This document shows, one piece after another, positions 3,448 through 57,190 of a DNA stretch of 64,000 nucleotides. Below the pieces are notes generated by a model. That model saw only the letters and a program-made list of their open reading frames with translations. It was not told where the DNA came from and did no database searches. How positions within the stretch are numbered: the first letter of the stretch is position 1; each line of letters begins with the position of its first letter. Origin of the DNA: Candidatus Spongiihabitans thiooxidans (GTDB taxonomy: Bacteria > Pseudomonadota > Gammaproteobacteria > Arenicellales > Poriferihabitantaceae); assembly GCA_001543005.1 (NCBI GenBank), contig LFLB01000031.1:2637-66636 (forward strand), given 5' to 3'. The position numbers were made by a program, and so were the translations under genes.

Positions 3448-5850
3448 ATGGTAACCATTTTAATTCTTTTGTTATTGGTGTTTGGGTTTTTATGGCTAAA
3501 GCTGCCATTTAAAAACTGGCTGATCACGTCCTTGGTTGTACTGTCGGTAACGATGATATTCGGCATTACCAATCTATTCCTGTCGCTGGTATTCATCGTT
3601 ATTTTCTCGGTGATGATGGTGTTGCTGTATTTTTTGCCCGATATCAGAAAGCAGTTTGTCAGCGCCCGACTATTTAGCATGGTAAAGCGGATGATGCCGC
3701 CGATTTCTCAAACAGAACGAGACGCAATCGATGCCGGAACGGTATGGTGGGACGCGGAATTGTTTTCGGGAAATCCAAATTGGAAAGTTTTGTTTAACGC
3801 TAAAACACCCGGGCTCACGAAAGCGGAGCAGGCGTTTATGGATGGCCCGGTTGAACAGCTATGTGCCATGACCGATGATTGGCAGATTACGTACGAGTTG
3901 AATGACCTGCCGGACGCGGTTTGGGACTTTATTAAAAATAATAATTTTTTCGGGCTTAATGCTGCAAAGGAATATGGCGGTTTGGCATTTTCTGCGTATG
4001 CTCAGTCTTGCATCGTGCAAAAACTGGCGACTCGGAGCGGCACCGTTGCAGTGACGGTTATGGTGCCGAATTCCCTCGGCCCTGCAGAGCTGTTGCTGCA
4101 CTATGGCACCGACCAGCAGAAGGCACACTACTTGCCGCGTTTGGCAAGCGGCGAAGAAGTCCCGTGTTTTGGCCTCACTAATCCCTGGGCCGGGTCTGAT
4201 GCCGTGGGTATGCCGGATTGTGGCGTGGTCTGCAAAGGTAAATACAAGGGTAAATCGGTGTTGGGGTTTCGGGTTAATTGGGAAAAACGATATATCACCC
4301 TCGGCCCGGTTGCCACCTTGTTGGGGCTGGCGTTTAAAGCCTACGACCCCGACCATTTATTGGGGCCTGAGCGGGAACTCGGCATTACCTGTGCGCTGGT
4401 GCCGACCAAGACCAAAGGGGTGTTGATTGGAAGACGGCATCTTCCGCTGAATGGGTCGTTCCAAAATGGTCCAAACTGGGGTAAAGATGTATTCATTCCG
4501 ATGCAATGGATTATCGGAGGTCAGGAAAAAGTGGGTCAGGGCTGGCGCATGCTGATGGAATCCCTGGCCGCAGGAAGGGGAATATCGTTGCCGGCGGCAG
4601 CGGCTGGCGCGGCAAAAGTGTCAGCGCGGACCAGTGGCGCCTATGCCCGAATTCGTGAACAATTTGGTATCGAGATCGGCAAGTTTGAAGGCATCGAAGA
4701 AGTGCTCGCTCGAATTGGCGGTCTGACTTATTTGCTGGATAGCGGCAGGATACTGATGACCACGGCCTTGTCATTGGGACAAAAACCGGCGGTGATGTCG
4801 GCTATCGTCAAGCAGCAATGTACGGATTTATCGCGCCGGGTGATAAACGACGCCATGGACCTGCATGGTGGCAAGGGAATCTGTATGGGTCCGGGAAACT
4901 ATTTGGCTAGAATTTACCAACAAATTCCGATTGGAATTACCGTCGAAGGCGCCAATATTTTAACCCGCAGCTTGATCATATTTGGACAGGGCGCGATGCG
5001 CTGCCATCCGTATTTACTGAAAGAGATTCAAGCGGTATCCATGCCGGATGCGGCCGAGGGTCTTGAGCAATTTGATGAAGCCATAGTCGGTCATATCGAA
5101 CATATAACGAGTAATAAAATGCGCTCTTTTGGCTATGGGCTAAGCCGTGGTTGGTTGGCGAAAGGGAGCGGTCAAGGCTTGATTAAAAAGCATTCTCGAA
5201 CCATTGAGCACTTGAGTGCCGGTTTTGCCTGGCTCGCCGACATAACCCTGTTTTCGTTGGGGGGAGACTTGAAACGAAAAGAAATGTTATCCGGAAGATT
5301 CGCCGATGTCATGAGCAATCTCTATTTGGCATCCGCGGCCTTGAAACGATTCAAGGACACTGGTGAACCGGAAAACGATGCGCCATTGGCAGACTGGGCC
5401 TGCCAATACGCTTTATATCAGGCGCAACAGGCATTAGACGGCATATTGCGTAATTATCCCAATCGGACTTTTGGACGACTACTGAGATTAGTTGTTTTTC
5501 CTGGCGGTCGGTATTTGCATATGCCGGCAGACACGCTTTCCCATGCCGTATCAGATTTGTTACAAACGCCGGGGGGTGCGCGAGACCGACTGACCCAGGA
5601 TATGTATATCTCAACCGACACGGATGATATTATTGCTCAACTTGAGTCCGCATTTGAATTGATGGTGGAAACCAGGGATTTACGCAAGCGATTAAAAAAA
5701 TCCGCGCAAGAGCCGACCGAAACACAAAACTACACCGATTGGCTGAAACAATTAGTGAAACAAAAAGTCATTACCAAAGAGGAATCGTCATTACTGAGTC
5801 AAACCCGCACCATGGTCAGAAAAGTGATTGATGTTGATGACTTTGATTGA
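3448..5850 (+). CDS. fadE: Large acyl-CoA dehydrogenase, FadE type
   Basis: 800 aa with an N-terminal membrane-like segment followed by MMPPISQTERDAIDAGTVWWDAELFSGNPNW. This is colinear with enterobacterial FadE, and acyl-CoA dehydrogenase core motifs follow. Confidence 0.9.
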   Translation: MVTILILLLLVFGFLWLKLPFKNWLITSLVVLSVTMIFGITNLFLSLVFIVIFSVMMVLLYFLPDIRKQFVSARLFSMVKRMMPPISQTERDAIDAGTVWWDAELFSGNPNWKVLFNAKTPGLTKAEQAFMDGPVEQLCAMTDDWQITYELNDLPDAVWDFIKNNNFFGLNAAKEYGGLAFSAYAQSCIVQKLATRSGTVAVTVMVPNSLGPAELLLHYGTDQQKAHYLPRLASGEEVPCFGLTNPWAGSDAVGMPDCGVVCKGKYKGKSVLGFRVNWEKRYITLGPVATLLGLAFKAYDPDHLLGPERELGITCALVPTKTKGVLIGRRHLPLNGSFQNGPNWGKDVFIPMQWIIGGQEKVGQGWRMLMESLAAGRGISLPAAAAGAAKVSARTSGAYARIREQFGIEIGKFEGIEEVLARIGGLTYLLDSGRILMTTALSLGQKPAVMSAIVKQQCTDLSRRVINDAMDLHGGKGICMGPGNYLARIYQQIPIGITVEGANILTRSLIIFGQGAMRCHPYLLKEIQAVSMPDAAEGLEQFDEAIVGHIEHITSNKMRSFGYGLSRGWLAKGSGQGLIKKHSRTIEHLSAGFAWLADITLFSLGGDLKRKEMLSGRFADVMSNLYLASAALKRFKDTGEPENDAPLADWACQYALYQAQQALDGILRNYPNRTFGRLLRLVVFPGGRYLHMPADTLSHAVSDLLQTPGGARDRLTQDMYISTDTDDIIAQLESAFELMVETRDLRKRLKKSAQEPTETQNYTDWLKQLVKQKVITKEESSLLSQTRTMVRKVIDVDDFD

Positions 5851-11192: not shown

Positions 11193-11516
11193 ATGAATTT
11201 ACTGATTTCAGACGCTTGGGCACAATTTGGTGGAGAGGGCGGTAGCGGACTGTTTGGCATTCTGCCAATGATTCTCATCTTTGCGGTTTTCTATTTTTTA
11301 CTGATTCGCCCCCAGCAAAAACGCTCGAAGGAACACAAAGCGATGGTGGCTACCATATCCAAAGGTGACGAAATCGTAACCAATGGCGGCGCGCTCGGTA
11401 AAGTGACCGCTGTGGATGATAATTTCGTCTCCGTGGAAATCGCTGCCGGTGTTACCATCAAAGTTCAGCGCATGGCGATAGCCCAAATGATGCCCAAAGG
11501 AACGGTGAAATCGTAA
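11193..11516 (+). CDS. yajC: Preprotein translocase subunit YajC
   Basis: 107 aa containing FYFLLIRPQQKR...GDEIVT.GG..G.V. It lies upstream of secDF. Confidence 0.9.
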   Translation: MNLLISDAWAQFGGEGGSGLFGILPMILIFAVFYFLLIRPQQKRSKEHKAMVATISKGDEIVTNGGALGKVTAVDDNFVSVEIAAGVTIKVQRMAIAQMMPKGTVKS

Positions 11517-11598
11517 ACAATATCATTAGGATGCTTGTCCGCAATGCGCCTGTCATTTCCCGCGCGCGCCGCCATTAACCTCGTAACTTCAATTCTCT

Positions 11599-35674: not shown

Positions 35675-36406
35675 ATGAAAATACTTGCCATAGACACCGC
35701 GACTGAAGCTTGTTCTGTGGCGCTATCAACCGCTCAGGAAATTATTCAGAAGTATGACATTCAGTCCATCGGGCAGCCGGCCGCACATTCGAGATTAGTA
35801 TTGCAAATGGTGGAAGATGTACTACAAAAATCAAACTTCAGACTGGGCAATTTGGATGCCATTGCGGTAAACACTGGACCGGGATCATTCACGGGCGTCA
35901 GAATCGGTTTGGGCGTGGCCCAGGGCTTGGCTTATGGTGCGGACTTGCCGGTTATTGGTGTCTGTTCGTTGGCAGTGTTGGCCGCATCAATTGAGAGTGG
36001 TGTGGTATTGCCGGCTATTGATGCACGAATGAATCAGGTTTATTGCGGACTCTATGAAGTGGTTAAAAGTTCTAAACCGATTCAACTGTATCACCCGGTG
36101 GTGGTTAATCCGGGTTCAATGCCGTTTCCGGTAAACAAATCCGCCTGCGGCTTAGGCAGCGGTTGGGATGTTTATGGCGACGCCATTATCGCGGGTATTG
36201 GGCACAACGAAATAAACCGCTTATCGGTGCGCTATCCCGAAGCAAAATATCTGGCCAAAGTCGCGCAACAATCGGGCTTGGAGTCGGCGGTGGCACCCAT
36301 GCAACTGCAGGCAACTTATGTCAGAAATAACATCGTTGAATCCCGAAAGCGGCTTCCTCCGGGAACACGTCCTGTCCGGCACGCCGACCACGCCCGGGGT
36401 CACTGA
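35675..36406 (+). CDS. tsaB: tRNA t6A biosynthesis protein TsaB (YeaZ), with a non-native C-terminal tail
   Basis: MKILAIDTATEACSVAL...GPGSFTGVRIG. After ...ATYVRNN (~36330) the frame runs into G+C-rich foreign DNA, reading ...RKRLPPGTRPVRHADHARGH. Confidence 0.85.
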   Translation: MKILAIDTATEACSVALSTAQEIIQKYDIQSIGQPAAHSRLVLQMVEDVLQKSNFRLGNLDAIAVNTGPGSFTGVRIGLGVAQGLAYGADLPVIGVCSLAVLAASIESGVVLPAIDARMNQVYCGLYEVVKSSKPIQLYHPVVVNPGSMPFPVNKSACGLGSGWDVYGDAIIAGIGHNEINRLSVRYPEAKYLAKVAQQSGLESAVAPMQLQATYVRNNIVESRKRLPPGTRPVRHADHARGH

Positions 36407-36577
36407 ATTGACCTATACGGCCACCGACAGTGCCACGGCGCAAGGTGTTTCGGCTTCCCGTGGTCTATCGAGCCATGGCCGGACTGGACGGCCACCGACA
36501 GTGCCACGGCGCAAGGTGTTTCGGCCCAGCACAAGAGGCAAAAATTGAGAACCAAAGCAAATACAACCGCCGCGTAA
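36330..36577 (+). pseudogene. Fragment of a cadherin-like/putative-Ig (He_PIG-like) repeat protein gene, frame-broken
   Basis: It reads SLNPESGFL..SGTPTTPGVTELTYTATDSATAQGVSA, the usual L.P.TG.LSGTPT..G.Y.FTVTATD pattern. A 38-bp stretch (36417-36454) recurs at 36488-36525 in another frame. No plausible full-length gene exists. Confidence 0.4.
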
Positions 36578-36646
36578 TCGTGGTGTTTGGTGAGGGGAAG
36601 GGGTGAGAACGAGTGAGGAATGAAATTTCCCTGCCTGTTTTCCGTC

Positions 36647-38209
36647 TCAGTCGTACACCACTCTGAAGCCTATGCTGTCAGAGCGGTGAGTGAGGGGCAG
36701 CAGTCGCCCAAACATGCTGCGCGCTGTGGTTTTGCCGGGTAACAGCCAGTTACCGCCCTGCACCCAGGCGGCGTAGTCGCCTCGTTCGGCGGTTATAGAG
36801 AGGGTCCACTCCGAGACGTTGCCGGCCAGGTCGTACACGCCGTTGGTGGTGCTGTCGTGTACTGCGTCCGCGCACTGGCGCGGCCCCGGTTCGGTCTGAT
36901 CGCCGGTGGCGGCGTTGTTCACCACATAATCACCGCCCCAAGGGTACGGATTGGCATCCGGCCCTGCGGCTAACAGTTGCCACTCTTCAACCAGGGGCAA
37001 TCGTCCGCCGGCCCAGCGGGCAAATGCGTCCGCCGCCCACCAGTTGATTCCGCTTACCGGCAGTTCGGGTCGCTGCAGTTGCTGTTCCCAGTTTTGCGGC
37101 ATGTAGTTTTGCCAGCGTGGTTCGTGTTCGTTGGCAAACAGACCGAGGCGCACCAGTGGATGACGTAAAAATGAGCGGTATTCGCTACGACTGACTTCGC
37201 AACGGCTTACCTCCATACGCCGTGCCCTCTGGGTTTGACTGATGAGACTGCGCGCTTTGCGTTGCCGTGCCGCCGGCAACAGTACCGCAATCCGGGCCAG
37301 CCGTAAGTCCCGTGGTACACCGAGCGGATAGTGGCCAACGGGAATCACCACCGATTTCGGCATCGCGCCCCACGGCAGGGTCGTCGCCGGTGGTTGTTGA
37401 TAGACGCAACGAAAACCCAGATGGTGGCTGCGCGTTTGTGGCTCAATATCAAGCCGGGCAGCGGCCAGTGCATACAGCGGCCGCCCGCGTGCGCGCATCG
37501 CCGGCGCACCGTGCGCCCCTGGCTGCCGTTCCAGAGGGTGTATGCCGCGCTGACCGCGGCTCCACTCCATCACATTGCCGGCCAGATCATGCACGCCTTC
37601 GGGTGTTGCCGTCGTTGGGTGCAGCGCGCAGGGTTTCGCGGCGTTGCGATGAGCGCTTTGGTAGGGCCAGGGGCTGTCATCGAAGGTGTCGCCCCATGGA
37701 TACAAACGCCCCTCACGCCCAACCGCCATCGCTTCCCATTCCTCGGCCCAAGGCAGGCGGCCGCCCGCTGCTGCGCAGTAGGCGACGGCGCCGTTGTAGT
37801 TCACTCCGCTTGCCGGAGACTGTAGCAATCCGGCGATGCGATGGCCGCTGGATGAACTGTACAATGCCTCCGGGTCGGACACCGGTGCACCGTCGCGTTG
37901 TTGCCAGCGTGCGAAACGCTCAAAGTCAAGTTGCCGCACTTCGCAGGTATCAGCCCAGAAGGAATTGATTTGTGTAGTATAAGCCGGTCGGTCCAGACGT
38001 CGCCGTAGCTCAGTGCCGAAATACCCGCGCTCCAGCGCTTCAAACAGAAACTGGTCAAACGCCCGGGCACGGGAGCTGTGCGATGCTTCAAAGCCGAGTT
38101 CCACGGTCACGGTATCGTTGTGCAACGCCCGAGAATCGAACTGGGTCAGTAACAACAGCAACAACACCAATGTGCCAAGACCGAATGCGGCGATGCGGTA
38201 TTGCTTCAT
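36647..38209 (-). CDS. Tandem FGE-sulfatase-fold (SUMF1/EgtB/PvdO family) protein with an N-terminal signal/anchor; the catalytic Cys pair is absent
   Basis: Domain 1 has YCAAAGGRLPWAEEWEAMA, RLYPWGD, HDLAGNVMEWS and HLGFRCVY. Domain 2 has FARWAGGRLPLVEEWQLLA, NPYPWGG, YDLAGNVSEWT and SIGFRVVYD. The start is set at MKQYRIAAFGLGTLVLLLLLL (ATG 38209), forming an ATGA overlap with the upstream stop. Confidence 0.85.
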   Translation of the reverse strand: MKQYRIAAFGLGTLVLLLLLLTQFDSRALHNDTVTVELGFEASHSSRARAFDQFLFEALERGYFGTELRRRLDRPAYTTQINSFWADTCEVRQLDFERFARWQQRDGAPVSDPEALYSSSSGHRIAGLLQSPASGVNYNGAVAYCAAAGGRLPWAEEWEAMAVGREGRLYPWGDTFDDSPWPYQSAHRNAAKPCALHPTTATPEGVHDLAGNVMEWSRGQRGIHPLERQPGAHGAPAMRARGRPLYALAAARLDIEPQTRSHHLGFRCVYQQPPATTLPWGAMPKSVVIPVGHYPLGVPRDLRLARIAVLLPAARQRKARSLISQTQRARRMEVSRCEVSRSEYRSFLRHPLVRLGLFANEHEPRWQNYMPQNWEQQLQRPELPVSGINWWAADAFARWAGGRLPLVEEWQLLAAGPDANPYPWGGDYVVNNAATGDQTEPGPRQCADAVHDSTTNGVYDLAGNVSEWTLSITAERGDYAAWVQGGNWLLPGKTTARSMFGRLLPLTHRSDSIGFRVVYD

Positions 38210-39945
38210 TTTCGCCACGCCGTGGCCAAGCGTCGCACCAGCAACAGGAAGCCGAGCAGGCAAACTATCAATATGGCGTACAACGTTACCAGCCAACCGC
38301 GTGTCCCGAACCCGGCTTCTTGGTACGGTGTCAGCAGCGGGCGACCGTTCAGGCGTACCCGGTTGTCCTCGGCTTGCACCACCAGCCGCCCGTCGGCATC
38401 AATGCTGGCATCAATGAAGCCGATGATAAAGTCATCAAACTTGGGCGCGATGTAGGCCACCGCTCGCCAACGCAACTGGTTGGCACGTTGTTGTTTCGGC
38501 GGCATCAACAGTATTGAGTTCCATTCAAGCGGTAGCGAAAGGCCGCGCCACACGTCGGGATGGGTGTTTAGCTGCAGTAGTGGACGCGCTACCGCAGGCA
38601 GCGACGCGGCATTATGTCGTGCCTGCCCGACCGAGACCTGCTGTAGCCGCCGATTGGGCTCAATGATAAGTGCCGTGTTCGCCTGCTCCTCAAACTCAAG
38701 CGAGATGACTTTGAGTTGCGGTTGGTTGCGCCCATCGGCGGCAGGCGGTTGGATTCCCATAGCCAGGTCTTCGGGAAAATTTTGTGCCAGATTCTGGAAT
38801 ACATCCCAAACCAGCGTGCTCACCAGTGTGCGTGTTTGCGGATCAAGTTCCAGCGGCGCAGTGAATGCACGGCTGAGCAGTTGCTCAAAATTTGCCAGCT
38901 GGGCGCTCGGTGAGGCACCCGCATCCAGGGTTGCTTGCAACTTGCCGATGAAATCAAACAGCACCATTAGCACCCGTTCTACTGTCGGTTCGGTGTCGCC
39001 CCAGTTGAGCGCCTGAGCGCTATCCGGGCGCAGCGACTCCGGCGTGGAAAGCCGAAAACGGATGCGCCCGTCGCCCTCGCCCGCCGGTGCACCGAGCAAC
39101 CCTTGAGACTGCGAGCCGGGACGCGCATTGGGAAAACTGCCGCCCAGAGCGCTACTGCCGAAGTTGGTCGCGTCTGCAAACGAGCCGAAACCGGTCGCGC
39201 CCGGTAACGGACCGGGGACGGCCCCGCCTGGGAATGCACCGAAGCCGGCCGCCGCACCTTCGTCGGGTGCTCCCGGAAAACCCGGCGGCGGCCAGGTTTC
39301 ATCGCCACCGCCACCGCCGTCGCCCTGCGCCAGTGTCGGCAAGGCCGATGCCGCCGCCGAGCCGGTGCCCGCACCACAATCCTGGGCGGCGACAGCGGGC
39401 GGGCACTGGCCAGCCTGGGCCAGATCCAGCCCGCCAGAGAGAAAATGCCAATGCTGCACGGTGATGTCGTGGTCGCGCAAAATTGACATGGCCAGATAGA
39501 ATTGGGCGATGTCATACACGTCGGCGCGCAGACGCCGTTTGCGATCCTGGTCAAAATCGGCAAGCCAAGCGTCCATGCCGTTCGGTTCGCGCAATAACTG
39601 TTCTCGACGCCAGATTGTCCCGCTGTAAAATTCACGCACGAAGCCGCGGTGTAATTCAATAATCGGCAACACGTCGGGGTCGTACTGTTGATCGAGCGGC
39701 GAGTTGCGGTAGTCGTGCAACTGTGCCGGCCTGCTCGCCGCCAGGCTGTTCAGTACCAGCGAGGTGCTGAAGCGGCGGCTCATCATCGTTGCCACTTCTT
39801 CTATCTGCGAAGCGGTACGTTGTTCGTGTTCGCCGCGCGCGGCGATGCTGAGCACGATGACGATAATCAGCATCGCCAGGCCGTTGGCGAGGATATCCAC
39901 TAACGCAGTGCCAGAGAAATCGGGCATTTGCATCCGCCGTTTCAT
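38206..39945 (-). CDS. Hypothetical bitopic envelope protein with an ExbD/TolR-like N-terminal anchor, a Gly/Phe/Pro-rich spacer, a large unknown domain and a C-terminal TM
   Basis: The 579 aa show these parts. The N-terminus is KRRMQMPDFSGTALVDILANGLAMLIIVIVL. Low complexity spans ~aa 180-293 (GFPGAPDEGAAAGFGAFPGG...TGFGSFADATNFGSS). The C-terminal TM is GWLVTLYAILIVCLLGFLLLVRR. ATGA overlaps occur at both ends. Confidence 0.6.
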   Translation of the reverse strand: MKRRMQMPDFSGTALVDILANGLAMLIIVIVLSIAARGEHEQRTASQIEEVATMMSRRFSTSLVLNSLAASRPAQLHDYRNSPLDQQYDPDVLPIIELHRGFVREFYSGTIWRREQLLREPNGMDAWLADFDQDRKRRLRADVYDIAQFYLAMSILRDHDITVQHWHFLSGGLDLAQAGQCPPAVAAQDCGAGTGSAAASALPTLAQGDGGGGGDETWPPPGFPGAPDEGAAAGFGAFPGGAVPGPLPGATGFGSFADATNFGSSALGGSFPNARPGSQSQGLLGAPAGEGDGRIRFRLSTPESLRPDSAQALNWGDTEPTVERVLMVLFDFIGKLQATLDAGASPSAQLANFEQLLSRAFTAPLELDPQTRTLVSTLVWDVFQNLAQNFPEDLAMGIQPPAADGRNQPQLKVISLEFEEQANTALIIEPNRRLQQVSVGQARHNAASLPAVARPLLQLNTHPDVWRGLSLPLEWNSILLMPPKQQRANQLRWRAVAYIAPKFDDFIIGFIDASIDADGRLVVQAEDNRVRLNGRPLLTPYQEAGFGTRGWLVTLYAILIVCLLGFLLLVRRLATAWRK

Positions 39946-40475
39946 GGCGTTTTCTCGACGTAGTTCTGGATGTAGTCGGGGATGTCGTTCAGCGTCACCG
40001 ATTTGAGCAGTTCATTATCGGCGATTACCCAGCCGATGGCTAATACCTGTTGCGGCCACATCTGGCGTAAACACTCGCGCGCTAACGCCATGCTTAGCAC
40101 ACTGCCTTCCAGCATGAAAAACACCAGCTGGTTGCCGTTGTCCTGGTAAACGCGCCGGGCATAGTCAACGAAGGGGCTACCCGCCGCGCACACCTCAGCC
40201 GGGTTGATGCTGATGCCGGTTTCAATGATACGTAACTCGTCAGGAAAGGTGATCACCACGTAACCGCTACCGCCGTCAAGGCGTTCAATGCGGTACAGAC
40301 CGTCTTCGCTGTTGCGCTCCAGCCGTTCGCGTTGTGCCGCATCGGAATATAGGTTGACCACTACCAGAAACACCAACAGCACGCCAAACACGCCGCCGAA
40401 AATGGCCATCATTGGCGCGTTGTTCTCTTCTTGCAAGGCGTCCGCGGCAACGCGCCGCGCCGATGTGCGTCTCAC
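39942..40475 (-). CDS. Hypothetical single-pass membrane protein, ExbD/TolR-like by topology and N-terminal pattern
   Basis: 177 aa. The GTG start is preceded by GAGGAG. The N-terminus is ...EENNAPMMAIFGGVFGVLLVFLVVV, followed by a ~125-aa soluble domain. Similarity to ExbD was judged by eye only. Confidence 0.5.
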   Translation of the reverse strand: MRRTSARRVAADALQEENNAPMMAIFGGVFGVLLVFLVVVNLYSDAAQRERLERNSEDGLYRIERLDGGSGYVVITFPDELRIIETGISINPAEVCAAGSPFVDYARRVYQDNGNQLVFFMLEGSVLSMALARECLRQMWPQQVLAIGWVIADNELLKSVTLNDIPDYIQNYVEKTP

Positions 40476-40650
40476 TTCGGACTCCTCAGATTTTCAAGGC
40501 ACGAGTACGGGCATGAATTCAAGATCAAACTTAAGCATCGCCTATACTCGATGCCACGTTCTACTTCGCACCCCTTAGATTTTAAAGGAACGAGCACGAG
40601 CATGAATTCAAGATCAAACTTCAACATAGTCTATACTCAATGCCAAGTTC
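40474..40650. repeat. Two tandem ~89-bp AT-rich repeats inside the G+C-rich cassette
   Basis: 40474-40562 and 40563-40650 align with ~80% identity by eye. Copy 1 supplies the SD and GTG of the 177-aa gene. Confidence 0.9.
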
Positions 40651-40713
40651 AAAGAATTTATAAACGAGGTGAAAGAATTTATAAACGAGGTGCAGAAATT
40701 TATAAACGAGGTA
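40651..40713. repeat. 21-bp tandem repeat x3 (aaagaatttataaacgaggtg), overlapping the stop codon of the MotA/ExbB-like gene
   Basis: Read directly from the sequence. Confidence 0.95.
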
Positions 40714-41782
40714 AGGCATCCGACCGGGTTTTTTGCAAACGCCGTTCAAGAGTGGCGAGCAAGCGTTCTTCGCTACGTTGCACCAGTGCCAACACCAGCA
40801 TCAGCAGCACGCTCAACGACAGCGCGATTAAGGTAGTGTCAAAGGCGATGCCGAGCGGAGCGATGGCGGCGTCCAGGTCGCTCGACAGGCTGGCCAGCCC
40901 GGCATCCGAGGCGATGATACGGCGGATGCCATCAGCCGCCAGCGAAATACCGAGCACGGTGCCGATGAAACCCAAAATCGGCACGGCCCAACAGATGTAG
41001 CGTGGAATCAACCAAGATTCCTCGTGCCGCCGCCATAACAACTGCATAGACATGTCAAGGTCGGTGGGGTTTGCGCTGAGCACATCCAGGCTGGCGGCGA
41101 AGGGCGAAACTCGCATGCGCGGGTTGGTGCGCCAACCTGTCAGTACCCGGCGCAAGTACCAGCCGTTCCACGATTTGCCGAGCAACAGCAACATACCCCA
41201 GAAAAACAGTAGCATGGTGATCGGCGGAATCACGCCGCGTTCCAGAAAGCGCCGCGTCAGTGATTGCACATCGGCGGCGCCGCGCGCCAGTAGCTCAAGG
41301 CCGAGAATCGTGCCGGCACACAGAATCAGCGCGGTGATTAGCGACGGCAATATGCCCGGGCCGTAGATCAGGCGCGCCAGACGTTCAAGGCTTTGTTCGT
41401 GTTCGCCGGAGTTCACAGTGGCAACCCACAGGTTACAGGCGTGGAGCGCGAGCACGGCGATAAACATTGGCATCATGCGCCCGGCCCAGGCACCGCTGGC
41501 GCCGGCGCTAATCACCTGCCAGGCGGGCACCGCCAGTACCAGCGCCACCGCCACCAGAGCGATTGTGCCCAGCGCCAATAGACAAGTGAACAGTGCGTGG
41601 CGGGTGCCGAGGAAAAACCAGGTAATCACCAGCGCCCCGAGTGCAAGCACCGATGATACTGTGGCCAGCCACACGGGTAGTTCCAGTACCCGTGTCAGAT
41701 TGATGGCGACGAGTGTTAGCAGGATGAAATAAAGAAGCAGCGACAAGCGGGCAGGCCAGTATAAAGTCATGGGCGGTCTCAA
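40700..41782 (-). CDS. MotA/TolQ/ExbB proton-channel family protein with an extended polytopic N-terminal region
   Basis: The C-terminal part WAVPILGFIGTVLGISLAADGI...LDAAIAPLGIAFDTTLIALSLSVLLMLV matches the LG(L/F)xGTVxG ... G(I)xxAxxTTxxGL signature of MotA_ExbB. About six further hydrophobic segments lie N-terminal. Confidence 0.75.
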   Translation of the reverse strand: MRPPMTLYWPARLSLLLYFILLTLVAINLTRVLELPVWLATVSSVLALGALVITWFFLGTRHALFTCLLALGTIALVAVALVLAVPAWQVISAGASGAWAGRMMPMFIAVLALHACNLWVATVNSGEHEQSLERLARLIYGPGILPSLITALILCAGTILGLELLARGAADVQSLTRRFLERGVIPPITMLLFFWGMLLLLGKSWNGWYLRRVLTGWRTNPRMRVSPFAASLDVLSANPTDLDMSMQLLWRRHEESWLIPRYICWAVPILGFIGTVLGISLAADGIRRIIASDAGLASLSSDLDAAIAPLGIAFDTTLIALSLSVLLMLVLALVQRSEERLLATLERRLQKTRSDALPRL

Positions 41783-41827
41783 GATGTTGGTTTTTGTGGT
41801 AGCGGTAGGGTCAGGCTCAATTCAATT

Positions 41828-42721
41828 TCAGCCGCTGAGTAGTAATTCATTGACAAAGCGTGTTCCAAAATAAGCTAAAAAAAGAATTCCGAATGCGATA
41901 ATTGTCCATTTTGCGGCAGTTTGCCCCCGCCAACCCGCAATTTTACGCCCGGACAGTAAACATGCAAAGCAAAACCATGCCAATATGGAAAACAATATGT
42001 GGTGATTGAAATCCAGCAATGCGCCAAAATTTTTTAAATTAGAGATCATGCCGACAACTAAATTGGTTGTCATCAGTAAAAATCCCAATAGCGTCAGCCA
42101 AAACAGATTTGCCTGCATGGTTTGTATGGCTGGAAAAGCGGGCAGCCTGTTGCCCGGGTTAGGTTTGTGTAGTAACCGATCCTGTATAATCAACAAACAC
42201 GCTTGGGCAAAGGCGACGCATAATATGCCATAAGTCGGAATAGCCAGGGCAATGTGCCAGCCCATTCCCCGAGGGATTGGATTATGCGAAATTTGATTTA
42301 TTGAAAAGGCGTGATTAGTTGATGTTGCGTCAACTGATGTGAAGCCAATCAACACCGCGATCAATCCTAATGGAAGTACAATGATTCCAAGATTAATGGT
42401 TTTCTTGATAAACGAAATACATAAATATAATGCGACCGAAATCCATCCTGCCATTGATATTGCCAGTCCTAAAGAAATATTTGGATCGCCTTGTGAATAG
42501 ACCTGTGAATAGCCCGGTGAATCGACCTGAGAATAGATGCTGTGATAGAGTAAATAGCCATGCACGACGATTGCCAGGGTGGTCAATCCCGGTATCAGAA
42601 ACCTGGCATGACCGTTGTTGGAACGAGTGATGGTATAGCCATACGCTTCACGCCAAAGGAAAAATGTACCGAGGCAGTAAATTGCGACACAGGCCGTTAC
42701 CAAAATTAATGACCACGACAT
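41828..42721 (-). CDS. ypjD: Cytochrome c assembly (CcsA-like) family inner-membrane protein YpjD
   Basis: It is polytopic and divergent from ffh, as in E. coli. The start is set at ATG 42721 because the longer ORF would overlap ffh. Confidence 0.75.
   Translation of the reverse strand: MSWSLILVTACVAIYCLGTFFLWREAYGYTITRSNNGHARFLIPGLTTLAIVVHGYLLYHSIYSQVDSPGYSQVYSQGDPNISLGLAISMAGWISVALYLCISFIKKTINLGIIVLPLGLIAVLIGFTSVDATSTNHAFSINQISHNPIPRGMGWHIALAIPTYGILCVAFAQACLLIIQDRLLHKPNPGNRLPAFPAIQTMQANLFWLTLLGFLLMTTNLVVGMISNLKNFGALLDFNHHILFSILAWFCFACLLSGRKIAGWRGQTAAKWTIIAFGILFLAYFGTRFVNELLLSG
42489..42536. repeat. Imperfect 12-bp in-frame tandem repeat x4 inside ypjD (encodes YSQVDSPGYSQVYSQG)
   Basis: Read directly from the sequence. 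Confidence 0.8.
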
Positions 42722-42874
42722 ATCTAATACATAATTAGAGGGAATATACAGATGCGGTGAATTATACACTTCCATGAATCGGGCAAAGTCACTCATTAGC
42801 CTTTCTTGCATGGCTTTATCTTGGGCGCGCAAAAATAATTTTAACTCATCATTAACAGCAGGACGATTAAAAGC

Positions 42875-44236
42875 ATGTTTAACCAACTAAGCGATAAACT
42901 TCGCGGCACCATAAAAACCCTAAGTGGTCGAAGTCGTCTCACCGAAGCAAATATATCCGATGCGATGCGTGAGGTTCGGATCGCATTATTGGAAGCGGAT
43001 GTTTCACTTGAGGTTACTAAAAGTTTTATTGAACAGGTAAAGGTTCGGGCCGTTGGAGCCGAGGTGTTGGGCAGCTTGCAACCCGGTCAGGCGGTTATAA
43101 AAATCGTTCAAGACGAGCTGGTCAAATTGATGGGCGATGCAAATGAAGTGCTTAATCTGTCAGCACGTCCGCCGGCAACGATTTTCGTGGTCGGCCTTCA
43201 GGGTTCAGGTAAAACGACCACAGTGGGCAAACTGGGTCATTTTCTCAAAACCCGTCAGAAAAAATCTGTTTTGGTGGTTAGCACTGATATTTATCGTCCG
43301 GCAGCCATTGCTCAGCTTAAAGCCATTGCCGATGATCTTGGGTTAAATTTTTATCCAAGCAGTCAATCACAAAAACCCGTGGACATTGCCATGAATGCTT
43401 TGCAGCATGCGCGTAAAAACAGCATCGATGTGGTTATCGTCGATACCGCGGGACGCTTGCATGTGGACGAAAAAATGATGGGGCAAGCCAAGGCATTGCA
43501 GCAAGCGGTGCAACCCATAGAAACCTTGTTCGTGGTCGATAGCATGACCGGACAAGATGCGGTCAATAGTGCCCAAGCGTTTGCTCAGGCACTACCCTTG
43601 ACCGGGGTGATTTTGACCAAAACCGATGGCGACGCGCGCGCGGGTGCGGTGCTGTCTATTCGTCGGGAGACCGGCAAACCGATTAAATTTTTAGGCACCG
43701 GCGAAGCTATGGATGCGTTGCAGCCGTTTCACCCTGAGCGCGTTGCTTCGCGGATTCTGGGCATGGGGGATGTATTGTCGCTGGTCGAGGAAGTAGAGCG
43801 CAAGACGGACCAAGACCAGGCGGAAAAACTGATGAAAAAAATAACCCAAGGCAAAGGATTTGATTTGGAAGATTTTCGCGATCAGATGATGCAAATACAG
43901 AACATGGGCGGAATGATGGGGATGGTTGAAAAACTTCCCGGTATGGGCAAGCTATCACAACAGGCTCTGGATCAGGTTGGTGACAAGAAAACCGATCAAT
44001 CTATCGCGATTGTTAATTCGATGACGCCGCACGAACGAAAATTCCCCGCAGTCATTCGCGCTTCCAGAAAACAGCGCATAGCCGCCGGATCTGGCACACA
44101 GGTGCAGGAGGTTAATCGTTTGTTGAAACAATTTCTGCAAATGCAAAAAATGATGAAAAGGATGAAAAAGAAGGGGGCAGTGAAAGGCCTGCTCGATCAA
44201 TTTCATGGCGGTGCAATGCCTGGCAGACGGTTTTGA
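42875..44236 (+). CDS. ffh: Signal recognition particle protein Ffh
   Basis: MFNQLSDKLRG..., GLQGSGKTTT, DTAGR, and a Met-rich M domain. Confidence 0.97.
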   Translation: MFNQLSDKLRGTIKTLSGRSRLTEANISDAMREVRIALLEADVSLEVTKSFIEQVKVRAVGAEVLGSLQPGQAVIKIVQDELVKLMGDANEVLNLSARPPATIFVVGLQGSGKTTTVGKLGHFLKTRQKKSVLVVSTDIYRPAAIAQLKAIADDLGLNFYPSSQSQKPVDIAMNALQHARKNSIDVVIVDTAGRLHVDEKMMGQAKALQQAVQPIETLFVVDSMTGQDAVNSAQAFAQALPLTGVILTKTDGDARAGAVLSIRRETGKPIKFLGTGEAMDALQPFHPERVASRILGMGDVLSLVEEVERKTDQDQAEKLMKKITQGKGFDLEDFRDQMMQIQNMGGMMGMVEKLPGMGKLSQQALDQVGDKKTDQSIAIVNSMTPHERKFPAVIRASRKQRIAAGSGTQVQEVNRLLKQFLQMQKMMKRMKKKGAVKGLLDQFHGGAMPGRRF

Positions 44237-55477: not shown

Positions 55478-56833
55478 ATGACACAATTAATAAAACAGGG
55501 AATAGCGAGATTAAAGTGGTTTTTTGCACAACGCTCATTATCTAAATCCCGATTCGTGATTGGTTTTCTGGGTTTATTCGGCTCGGGACTGCTGCCAGCC
55601 GTGGTACATGCCCAAGATGTTCTCGATAGCGGCGATACAGCCTGGATTTTGGTAGCCACCGCGCTGGTCTTGTTGATGACGCTGCCCGGACTCGCGTTTT
55701 TCTACAGCGGCCTGGTGCGTTCCATCAACGTGTTGTCGGTGATGATGCAGTGTTGCGTAGTGGCCTGCGTATCATCGATATTGTGGCTGGCGGTCGGCTA
55801 CAGCATCGCCTTTGGGGACGGTGGTGCCGCCAATGCCTGGTTCGGCGGTTTCGGTAAGTCCTTCCTGATAGGTGTCGGCGTTGATGACCTGACGGGCACC
55901 ATCCCGGAAGTGTTGTTCTGCTTGTTTCAGATGACCTTCGCGATCATCACCCCGGCGCTGATCATCGGTGCTTATGCCGAGCGCATCAAGTTCATGCATG
56001 TTGTGCTATTCAGTGGCTTTTGGATGCTGATCGTGTACGCGCCGGTGGCGCACTGGATTTGGGGCGGCGGCTTCCTTGCTGACCTTGGAGTACTGGATTT
56101 CGCTGGCGGCTTGGTGGTGCATGCAACCGCCGGGACCGCGGCCTTGGTGTTGGTGATAATGCTTGGTCCGCGTAACGGGTTTTCTCATGGTGGTTCCCCG
56201 CCGCACAACCCGGGCATGACTATGGCCGGTGCCGCATTGTTATGGGTCGGATGGTACGGCTTCAACGGCGGCAGTGCCCTGACAGCCGGCGGCAATGCCG
56301 CGATGGCGGTTCTGGTGACCCATATTTCCGCGGCCACGGCGGCTCTGGTCTGGGTCGTGATTGAAAACTTGCGTTTCGGCAAGTCCAGCCTAGTGGGGCT
56401 GGTGACTGGTCTGATCGCGGGGCTGGCCTCAATTACTCCAGCGTCGGGGTTCGTGGGACCCGTCGGCGGTCTCGCGATTGGTTTTGCGGGCGGCGTGGTC
56501 TGCTATTTGGCAGTGGACTGGGTGAAGGTCAAACTAGTTATTGATGACACTCTTGATGTATTTGCGGTGCACGGCGTGGGCGGCGTTCTCGGCACTATCC
56601 TGACCGCGATATTCGGCGCGACCACGTTTGGCGGTCTTGGACTCGAAGTCAGCATCGGCAAGCAATTGGTGAGTCAGCTAACGGGGGTGGTCGTAACCAT
56701 GGCATGGACTGCATTGGGTACTTGGCTGATCGTTTTGGTGGTTAGGAAACTGGTCGGTTTGCGGGTGGATCCTGCTGATGAGTCCGAGGGTCTCGATTAC
56801 GTTGCCCACGGCGAGCGTGGTTATCACTTATAA
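55478..56833 (+). CDS. amt: Ammonium transporter (Amt family)
   Basis: DSGDTAWILVATALVLLMT.PGLAFFY.G, VVHATAG, and DDTLDVFAVHGVGGVLG. Confidence 0.92.
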   Translation: MTQLIKQGIARLKWFFAQRSLSKSRFVIGFLGLFGSGLLPAVVHAQDVLDSGDTAWILVATALVLLMTLPGLAFFYSGLVRSINVLSVMMQCCVVACVSSILWLAVGYSIAFGDGGAANAWFGGFGKSFLIGVGVDDLTGTIPEVLFCLFQMTFAIITPALIIGAYAERIKFMHVVLFSGFWMLIVYAPVAHWIWGGGFLADLGVLDFAGGLVVHATAGTAALVLVIMLGPRNGFSHGGSPPHNPGMTMAGAALLWVGWYGFNGGSALTAGGNAAMAVLVTHISAATAALVWVVIENLRFGKSSLVGLVTGLIAGLASITPASGFVGPVGGLAIGFAGGVVCYLAVDWVKVKLVIDDTLDVFAVHGVGGVLGTILTAIFGATTFGGLGLEVSIGKQLVSQLTGVVVTMAWTALGTWLIVLVVRKLVGLRVDPADESEGLDYVAHGERGYHL

Positions 56834-56845
56834 TAGGAGGTTGAA

Positions 56846-57190
56846 ATGAAAATAATTGTCGCAACAATCAAGCCGCACATGTTTGACCGGGTAGTGCAAG
56901 CACTGATAGAAGAAGATGTCCCCGGCTTGACCACCCACGAAATCCATGGGTTCGGCCGGGAACGTAAGGACTCCACCGAGATTTCCCGTGGCGTAACCTA
57001 CCGCACCAAACTAAAACCGATGATGCTGATGATGGCGGCAGTCACCGATGATCGCGTTGACCGTATTAAAAAGATCATCGCCGAATACGCCAACACCGGC
57101 CAAATCAGCAGCGGCAAAATATTCGTGTTGAATCTTGAAGATGTGACCAGAATCCGGACTGGGGAAATTGGCGAGACGGCCTTATTGTAA
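56846..57190 (+). CDS. P-II family nitrogen regulatory protein (divergent T-loop)
   Basis: MKIIVATIKP...V..AL......G.T..E..GFGRE......, and GKIFV..LEDV.RIRTGE is colinear with GlnB/GlnK. Confidence 0.8.
   Translation: MKIIVATIKPHMFDRVVQALIEEDVPGLTTHEIHGFGRERKDSTEISRGVTYRTKLKPMMLMMAAVTDDRVDRIKKIIAEYANTGQISSGKIFVLNLEDVTRIRTGEIGETALL

Follow-up and report, generated by a model that had tools for sequence, protein, structure and literature searches.

The question raised by the 64,000-nt stretch of contig LFLB01000031.1 from Candidatus Spongiihabitans thiooxidans analysed here (the window) is what is encoded by the G+C-rich island between its tsaB and ypjD genes, and to which envelope system, if any, that island belongs. 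The island proved to be an operon, self-contained and acquired horizontally, that encodes four envelope proteins, called A to D below in their order on the minus strand. Our reading of this cassette, held with moderate confidence, is that of a Ton/Tol-like motor driven by the proton-motive force (pmf), whose periplasmic output is novel and which is passed between bacteria within sponge holobionts. The island and its genes are as follows.

36330..41827, minus strand: G+C-rich island, consisting of the four-gene cassette and, on the left, about 300 bp of relic DNA (G+C content, tetranucleotide composition, G+C at third codon positions)
40700..41782, minus strand: gene A, polytopic inner-membrane protein (Pfam and PADLOC matches, invariant motifs, hydropathy)
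39942..40475, minus strand: gene B, 177 aa, single-pass protein (N-in) whose periplasmic part is an alpha/beta domain (hydropathy, alignment, AlphaFold2 [AF2] model)
38206..39945, minus strand: gene C, 579 aa, with a transmembrane (TM) helix at each end (alignment, AF2 model, hydropathy)
36647..38209, minus strand: gene D, 520 aa, with an N-terminal membrane anchor and two FGE-sulfatase-fold domains at about 65-277 and 284-518 (Pfam, hydropathy)

The island is set apart by its composition. In segments of 400 nt the G+C content was 0.57-0.72 across 36.3-41.8 kb, compared with 0.40-0.50 in the flanks, and it dropped back at about 41.8 kb. For 36320-41827 as a whole it was 0.596, against 0.475 ± 0.013 (maximum 0.496) in the 95 other 5.5-kb segments of the window, and the tetranucleotide distance of the island to the rest of the window lay 20.8 standard deviations above that of other segments. 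Third-codon-position G+C was 0.67-0.72 in the cassette genes versus 0.44-0.52 in dinG, tsaB, ypjD, and ffh. These profiles bear out the abrupt switches at about 36.33 and 41.8 kb that the original prediction had described from the letters alone; it was right about the contrast but slightly overstated the values (>60% against the mid-40s, measured as 59.6% against 47.5%). Its four co-directional minus-strand genes agree with our map of open reading frames (ORFs), as do the stop/start overlaps that it noted, which measure 4 nt each for B/C (39942-39945) and C/D (38206-38209). The long antisense ORFs that it saw are present throughout the island (100-233 aa) and are expected in G+C-rich coding DNA.

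The four genes also travel together. A scan of one genome per species in 185,579 species returned 69 loci, and look-ups of individual homologues raised the total to about 75. The order A-B-C-D on one strand, to which the original prediction had tied its reading, was kept in every locus with enough sequence, including the most divergent ones (L075 and L076). All four genes are under purifying selection, with dN/dS values of 0.11-0.23 between the window and two relatives. Apart from a TonB-dependent receptor in one clade, no accessory gene beyond the four was common to the loci. Carriers belong to at least six phyla and include Spirochaetales, Thermodesulfobacteriota, Alphaproteobacteria, Nitrospirales, Myxococcota, and Gammaproteobacteria. 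In nearly every locus the cassette is richer in G+C than its flanks, by up to 0.16. The difference is least (about 0.02) in one gammaproteobacterial clade with conserved synteny, where the cassette thus looks long-resident. The A, B, and D proteins of the window are 69-77% identical to those of one alphaproteobacterium, two Nitrospirales, and one Myxococcota metagenome-assembled genome (MAG), but share only 46-58% identity with their counterparts in several other gammaproteobacterial groups. These identities conflict with taxonomy and shift in concert across all four genes. Mis-binning is unlikely, since several of these carrier genomes are single-contig chromosomes. The operon therefore moves between bacterial phyla as one unit, and the horizontal acquisition claimed in the original prediction is confirmed, although the insertion in the window is old (see below).

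Protein A supplies the link to the MotA/ExbB superfamily. Hydropathy averaged over the family gives seven clear hydrophobic helices and one weaker one, with a Lys/Arg-rich loop of 61 residues ahead of the last two helices and a basic tail of 28 residues after them. The Pfam MotA_ExbB model (PF01618) matched residues 244-346 (E=4e-4), and although its 20.5 bits fall short of the gathering score of 22.9, the match recurs (E<0.01) in 25 of 29 A relatives, with a best value of 5.9e-5. The ZorA models of PADLOC, which are of MotA/ExbB type, matched the window protein down to 1.4e-5 and 27 of the 29 relatives (best 2e-6), while the NCBIfam ZorA model gave 13 bits against a cut-off of 100. The MotA_ExbB and ZorA matches (25-27 of 29 relatives) map to the last two TM helices. 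One relative has a precomputed PF01618 match, and one A cluster is named "MotA/TolQ/ExbB proton channel family protein" at NCBI. Two motifs, P268-x-L-G-F-x-G-T-V-L-G and G311-I-A-F-D315-T-T-L, are invariant across 29 A sequences. The signature of the family, as known from ExbB and TolQ, is Pro-x-LG-x-x-GTV-x-G followed by a G-I-x-x-acidic/Thr-rich helix, and A carries it in its last two helices. On these sequence grounds the last three helices would form a MotA/ExbB/TolQ-type core, and A appears to be a very divergent member of the family with four to five extra helices at its N-terminus. The most likely start is the ATG at 41770 (356 aa) rather than the TTG at 41782 (360 aa), since a start is called there in a close relative. 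The MotA/ExbB-type character foreseen for a 360-aa protein is hence supported, and its length probably is not. Genuine tolQR or exbBD genes were sought in the window and the related loci, and none were found.

Protein C, the hallmark of the system, combines a candidate motor helix with domains that resemble nothing in the databases searched. Its parts, N- to C-terminal, are as follows.

N-terminus: TM helix with Asp17 in ALVDILANG (ALVD17ILANG-x-A-x-LII; alignment)
about 80-190: periplasmic alpha/beta domain with invariant C181 and C190 (alignment, AF2)
192-293: disordered Gly/Pro-rich linker of very variable length (AF2, alignment)
about 296-390: helical domain (AF2)
about 410-530: beta-rich domain (AF2)
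552-572: conserved C-terminal TM helix (FG-x-RGWL...), followed by a basic tail (hydropathy, alignment)

The hydropathy profile thus places a TM helix at both ends of a protein that the original prediction had taken to span the membrane once. Asp17 is invariant in 32 sequences, and by its pattern the N-terminal helix is of the kind found in ExbD, TolR, and MotB, where the Asp is essential; the best local hhalign alignment, which is not significant, sets it on Asp25 of ExbD. The AF2 model has good confidence for the folded domains, with residues 192-293 disordered. By eye, the order of strands and helices in the 80-190 domain is like that of TolR/ExbD, without a Foldseek match. No match to C was found in Pfam, PADLOC, NCBIfam, or the PDB sequences, and a Foldseek search of the model against PDB and BFVD returned nothing below E=0.1. 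An exhaustive hidden Markov model (HMM) search of 1.84 billion representative proteins delimited the family to 159 clusters at 50% identity (146 at E<=1e-10) with no tail of remote relatives.

Protein B is the best conserved of the four. Its 196 relatives are mostly 56-91% identical to the window protein across phyla, and the remotest of them (L075) is 37% identical. A TM helix (23-43) precedes a periplasmic domain in which two Cys are invariant. The few B clusters that have a name are all called "hypothetical protein", and no match was found in Pfam, PADLOC, NCBIfam, or the PDB sequences. The AF2 model reaches a predicted local distance difference test score (pLDDT) of 80-90 over residues 70-150, and the structures that Foldseek placed nearest to it, all below significance, are TolR (5by4 as the top match; E 0.07, probability 0.82) and ExbD (8vgd_B, probability 0.89 and TMt 0.70; 8p9r_A), with TMt values of 0.67-0.70. 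The B helix reads PMMAIFGG and has no equivalent of the Asp in C; its Ala stands opposite the ExbD Asp in the best hhalign alignment, which is itself not significant. The label of an ExbD-like single-pass protein given to B earlier consequently holds for the single pass, while the likeness to ExbD comes only from these non-significant folds and the helix has no Asp. The TM helices of B and C are near-invariant, as expected for helices buried in a complex. Paralogy between B and C gained no support, as hhalign of B versus C was not significant.

Protein D matches the FGE-sulfatase fold strongly, as the original prediction of a tandem FGE-fold protein of about 520 aa had it. PF03781 matched at E=7.6e-50 with 170 bits (cut-off 23.3) in two domains. 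The best PDB match was human SUMF2/pFGE (1y4j, 7.7e-20), followed by true FGEs, EgtB/OvoA-type domains, and PorK/GldK (5e-7); values for FGE/SUMF structures ranged from 1e-10 to 8e-20. In FGE, as in human SUMF1, the catalytic Cys pair lies in a CxxxxC motif before the C-terminal GFR motif. Neither the window sequence nor the conserved columns of the family have any Cys between GG485/486 and G514-F-R or before G265-F-R-C268. Because both domains retain the fold motifs and lack the catalytic pair, D is, by its motifs, an FGE-fold module and not an FGE enzyme. Its partner is indicated by natural fusions. In L067 (7863-11279) and L071 (6969-10451) C and D form one reading frame, in which the last helix of C runs through a short basic cytoplasmic loop (RRVFPAHLRAR) into the hydrophobic segment of D, and the representative library holds a 1118-aa C-D fusion (protein P0246). 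The fusions show that the N-terminus of D is a membrane anchor that pairs with the C-terminal helix of C, and that C and D work together. The positive-inside rule applied to the hydropathy of A to D predicts that the soluble domains of B, C, and D are all periplasmic, and the invariant Cys pairs in these three proteins favour that location.

These features can be assembled into a working model. A would form the ring of a proton-driven motor of the MotA/ExbB/TolQ type, most likely a pentamer of the 5:2 kind, and the Asp17-bearing N-terminal helix of C would be the axle within it. The Asp-less helix of B could be a second axle subunit, comparable to AglQ/AglS, or a peripheral partner, comparable to TonB/TolA. 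Proton flow along a pathway formed by A and Asp17 of C would move A relative to the axle. C would be tethered twice, by its N-terminal helix in the axle and by its C-terminal helix in a hairpin with the D anchor, presumably outside the ring. With this double tether, motor movement would pull or wind the Gly/Pro linker between the two ends of C in the manner of a Ton-type winch, as proposed for TonB around ExbD, and linker movement would shift the two novel periplasmic domains of C together with D, whose tandem non-catalytic FGE fold might act as a ligand-binding "hand". Since all soluble domains are predicted to be periplasmic, the output would lie in the cell envelope and not in the cytoplasm. 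The ligand or the benefit may be specific to the sponge body, for instance a molecule of the host matrix or host surface, or a stress on the envelope encountered there; given the niche of the carriers, a host-derived molecule or a sponge-specific stress is the most economical guess.

Several results weigh against this reading. The family profile of A matched no ExbB, TolQ, MotA, or ZorA chain among the PDB sequences, the Pfam score of the window protein is below the gathering score, and A carries four to five extra N-terminal helices. Pfam ExbD (PF02472) gave nothing at E<=1 for B or C, and the PDB profile searches with them gave no ExbD/TolR chain. The TolR/ExbD fold matches of B range from E 0.07 to 0.9, with none at E<0.001, and hhalign of B and of the N-terminal part of C was not significant against manually entered sequences of E. 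coli ExbD and TolR. The AF2 models of B and C are of medium overall quality (pLDDT 65-66) and model the TM parts poorly. The ring assembly, its stoichiometry, and its proton dependence are putative, and the winch and the host-related ligand are pure conjecture on our part. On the ecological side, many MAGs were assigned to their source by record name or accession series, and long-read sponge MAGs are over-represented in the collections searched.

Among known systems, the cassette probably works most like the Ton and Tol motors. A shares the MotA/ExbB/TolQ helix-hairpin signature; there is a partner helix with an invariant Asp (in C) and, on weak evidence, a TolR/ExbD-like periplasmic fold (in B). 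A third element with a long low-complexity spacer, a location of all parts in the inner membrane and periplasm, and translational coupling of the genes are likewise in common. The differences are nevertheless considerable. The Ton/Tol ring protein has three TM helices, whereas A has seven to eight and a cytoplasmic loop of only 61 residues. In the cassette the Asp helix and the ExbD-like fold are on separate proteins, both ends of C are membrane-anchored and its partner is a tandem FGE-fold protein, and sequence similarity stays under the curated thresholds. The unit lacks a TonB/TolA C-terminal domain, Pal, TolB, and a receptor: Pfam found no TonB_C in the four proteins, no TolA, TolB, or Pal domain was present in the cassette, and outside the receptor clade no neighbouring gene was conserved. 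In Myxococcus, one TolQ-like protein of the AglR-AglQ-AglS motor works with two different TolR-like single-pass partners. This is a precedent for the proposed pairing of B and C, but no sequence relation is evident, the cassette lacks the Glt partners, and C is far larger and has two TM helices. SUMF2/pFGE, the closest solved structure to D, also keeps the fold motifs without the catalytic Cys pair; D is instead tandem, membrane-anchored, periplasmic, bacterial, and linked or fused to a motor component.

One alternative to a motor with a new output is that the cassette is a divergent Ton-like energiser of outer-membrane uptake, with C in the role of TonB and D binding substrate in the periplasm. 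Its components resemble ExbB (A) and ExbD (the B fold and the Asp helix of C), and the long Gly/Pro-rich spacer of C recalls the proline-rich region of TonB. A 1133-aa TonB-dependent receptor (Plug and barrel) follows D on the same strand in 25 loci (L027:11643-15044 and 24 related loci, L028-L069), all from a sponge-symbiont clade of Azotimanducaceae/Pseudomonadales. However, its distance from D varies, and it is missing from the window and from every other lineage. The receptor loci form one vertically related clade and were thus counted as a single event, and genomes of this clade probably carry many TonB-dependent receptors. Pfam, PDB sequence, and fold searches found no TonB C-terminal domain in C, which, unlike TonB, re-enters the inner membrane through its C-terminal helix. 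We therefore regard an uptake energiser as unlikely. A defence system of the Zorya kind, in which a membrane sensor of the MotA/ExbB type would detect envelope perturbation and protect the cell from phages or other invaders by acting in the periplasm, has different points in its favour. The PADLOC ZorA models are the best-scoring HMMs for A (27 of 29 relatives, best 2e-6), and the cassette, like ZorA-ZorB, is horizontally mobile, and is also patchy and compositionally foreign. Restriction, methylase, and SLFN genes lie near the copy in L002 and a GmrSD_N gene near that in L005, and sponge symbionts are reported to be enriched in defence genes (PMC5649159). The similarity to ZorA is, however, limited to the generic motor helices of the MotA/ExbB type. 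A ends 28 residues past its last helix without a ZorA tail; B and C have no OmpA-like peptidoglycan-binding domain such as that of MotAB/ZorAB by Pfam, and the PADLOC matches are partial ZorA only. No conserved neighbour resembles ZorC/D/E or another nuclease, helicase, or NTPase, and none of the cassette proteins has a sizeable cytoplasmic domain for signalling or attack on DNA. Most copies lie among housekeeping genes, and defence systems are rarely limited to a single host niche. The defence role suggested in the original prediction thus gained no specific support, and we give it a rather low probability.

The remaining alternative is an analogue of the gliding/type IX secretion system (T9SS) core, GldK-L-M-N, in which the motor would drive C as a shaft against D as an FGE-fold ring protein, moving or secreting surface proteins. 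The part lists do run parallel, each with a stator that is (or would be) proton-driven, a bitopic protein extending far into the periplasm, and an FGE-fold protein without the cysteines; D matches PorK/GldK structures (5e-7) and the GldK model TIGR03525 (4.9e-9), and relics or genes for He_PIG/cadherin-like surface repeats adjoin the cassette in three loci. Yet the TIGR03525 score is 36 bits where the cut-off is 350, and that of GldJ is 13.6 where it is 458. GldK/PorK is an outer-membrane lipoprotein, while D has no lipoprotein signal (no Cys lipobox) and is a tandem protein anchored in the inner membrane. Sequence and fold searches gave nothing like GldL, GldM, or GldN in the cassette, its surroundings have no conserved outer-membrane or T9SS component, and the carriers belong to phyla other than Bacteroidota. 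This explanation is very improbable. The cassette accordingly maps onto none of Ton, Tol-Pal, MotAB, Zorya, or GldKLMN, and passes as a member only of the broad MotA/ExbB superfamily and the FGE fold. The claim that it equates with no known system, and the absences listed with that claim (a TonB C-terminal domain, Pal/TolB, an OmpA-like domain, ZorC/D/E), agree with the library searches. The overall reading of the original prediction is supported as well, with recurrent MotA_ExbB and FGE-sulfatase matches, a composition unlike the flanks, and a conserved gene order.

The reading as a Ton/Tol-like motor with its own periplasmic output leads to the question of where such a motor is used. The record titles of carriers are dominated by sponge-symbiont taxa such as Ca. 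Spongiihabitans and Ca. Poriferihabitaceae. The JYIN carrier, which is the most distant full-length member examined, is a sulfur oxidiser of a cold-seep sponge (PMC5361782), the MPMU and MKWU carriers come from Aplysina aerophoba (PMC5649159), and the WASV carriers come from Antarctic sponges (PMC6971038). When the B profile was run independently over 241 million metagenome records, at least four loci were confirmed, all of them, among the matches listed, from these same sponge metagenomes. One carrier is labelled as a coral MAG by its isolate name alone (Plut_88873), which probably stands for Porites lutea, and some other carriers presumably have reef or Arctic hosts, judging by their MAG series. 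Every carrier of verified origin is a sponge symbiont. That the cassette has so far been found only in sponge or coral holobionts is well supported; given the provenances taken from accession series and the sponge-heavy collections, a strict restriction to these holobionts is less certain. The occurrence in sponge symbionts suggests that the cassette helps bacteria to live inside these animals. A bolder version of the reading is that the cassette represents a new class of symbiosis factor, a motor with a heteromeric axle (the Asp-bearing C and the Asp-less B) that winds a flexible tether to operate a tandem pseudo-FGE receptor for a sponge-derived ligand, such as sulfated matrix material or a host surveillance factor, and that unrelated bacteria inside sponges would exchange because they could not persist in the host without it. 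We put this version forward tentatively and think it more doubtful than probable.

A full-text literature search found no published description of the cassette. In a 2025 survey of MotAB homologues (PMC12505986) the only mention is of unnamed "generic ion transporters" that carry various domains of unknown function. We rate the cassette as a new motor-plus-output system in the MotA/ExbB superfamily, with an unusual and previously unnoticed ecological distribution. Its new elements are a ring protein with extra helices, an Asp helix and an ExbD-like fold divided between two proteins, a doubly anchored orphan protein (C) with three periplasmic domains that have no PDB match, and a tandem non-catalytic FGE output. 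To our knowledge, motors of the MotA/ExbB type are the only route by which inner-membrane energy reaches the rest of the bacterial envelope, and each earlier set of partners (Ton, Tol, flagella, gliding/T9SS, Zorya) brought a new biological function to light. With hosts verified or named among Antarctic, Mediterranean, and cold-seep sponges, the cassette is a testable candidate answer to the old question of what genes allow unrelated bacteria to inhabit sponges, and a simple genomic marker of that lifestyle. If the symbiosis-factor version were true, no 5:2-type motor would have been linked to a symbiosis of animals and microbes before this one, and the cassette would mark the sponge lifestyle across phyla.

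How the cassette came to lie in the window can be followed in part from its boundaries and from the spacer between A and B.

35675..36406, plus strand: tsaB, left boundary, with a replaced C-terminal tail (ORF, comparison with L006)
36330..36646, plus strand: relic of a He_PIG (putative Ig/cadherin-like) repeat gene between the D stop codon and tsaB (Pfam He_PIG)
40474..40708, strand not assigned: A-B intergenic spacer with tandem repeats (repeat and G+C analysis)
41828..42886, minus strand: ypjD/ccsA-like gene, right boundary (ORF; same junction in L006 and L002/L007)

The flanks of the island are 87-97% identical at the protein level to Candidatus Spongiihabitans MAGs, and one of these, the sister genome L006, matches the window in gene order, ilv-ffh-ypjD / A B C D / tsaB-dinG. 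Another (L002/L007) has only the ypjD side in common with the window. More distant copies, of 62-82% identity, occupy different sites in further Spongiihabitans genomes. Synonymous divergence from L006 is 0.21-0.24 in the cassette and 0.22-0.30 in the flanking genes. As the divergence of the cassette equals that of its flanks, the insertion predates the split from the L006 lineage, and it appears from these substitutions to be old rather than recent, with its foreign composition retained. An empty tsaB/ypjD site was not found among the related loci examined, L006 being already occupied. No tRNA is present in the window, no integrase marks the island, no direct or inverted repeats bracket it, and no copies were found on plasmids, phages, or viral contigs (IMG/VR). 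Two other segments of the window were considered as further islands, 4001-5000 (G+C 0.545) and 56001-57000 (G+C 0.577), and were rejected, since they hold an ordinary fadE-like acyl-CoA dehydrogenase gene and an amtB-glnK pair; no second compositional island was found in the 64 kb.

At the left edge the window is about 480 bp shorter than L006. The He_PIG model matched the longer relic in L006 (about 11300-11560, reverse strand) at 8.5e-9 and the relic in the window at 0.0087, and the latter contains a perfect 38-nt direct repeat (36417-36454 and 36488-36525). Whereas tsaB ends in ...KRFPYGKIQ* in L006, it ends in ...KRLPPGTRPVRHADHARGH* in the window. The deletion of about 480 bp thus fused tsaB to the relic and replaced its last five codons by 15 codons from the G+C-rich relic DNA, which refines the earlier claim that the junction had replaced the natural C-terminus of tsaB. 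Intact He_PIG or PKD surface-repeat genes adjoin the cassette in L075 and L005. At the right edge, the distance from the ypjD stop codon to the TTG start of A is 45 bp, exactly as first noted. Read-through transcription from ypjD into the cassette is possible, since ypjD is co-directional and lies 45 bp upstream of A. A scan for promoters and terminators did no better than on shuffled sequence, and an Rfam search of 36.0-42.2 kb found no RNA family.

The A-B spacer is peculiar to this organism. It contains two tandem copies of 88 nt (85% identical) that duplicate the ribosome-binding site and start region of B, and three tandem copies of 21 nt that overlap the A stop codon, and its G+C content falls to about 0.47. 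These repeats occur in the window and in an identical Logan contig (L001) and nowhere else in the window or the related loci; in most relatives A and B overlap or abut.

The housekeeping genes among which most copies of the cassette lie are tsaB/ffh, as in the window, grpE-dnaK, cobyrinate synthase, and nuo. In L002, a Spongiihabitans genome, genes for a type I restriction subunit, a D12 methylase, and an SLFN/AlbA_2-HATPase protein flank the cassette at 13.7-21.7 kb, and in L005, a Nitrospirales genome, a GmrSD_N (DUF262) gene is located between dnaK and dnaJ at 16.2-17.9 kb, 3 kb from the cassette. The ypjD gene of the window is 67% identical to its L002 counterpart, the neighbouring genes being 86-97% identical. 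Its longest ORF (TTG start, 41828-42886) overlaps the start of the divergent ffh gene (42875-44236), so the true ypjD start is probably further in.

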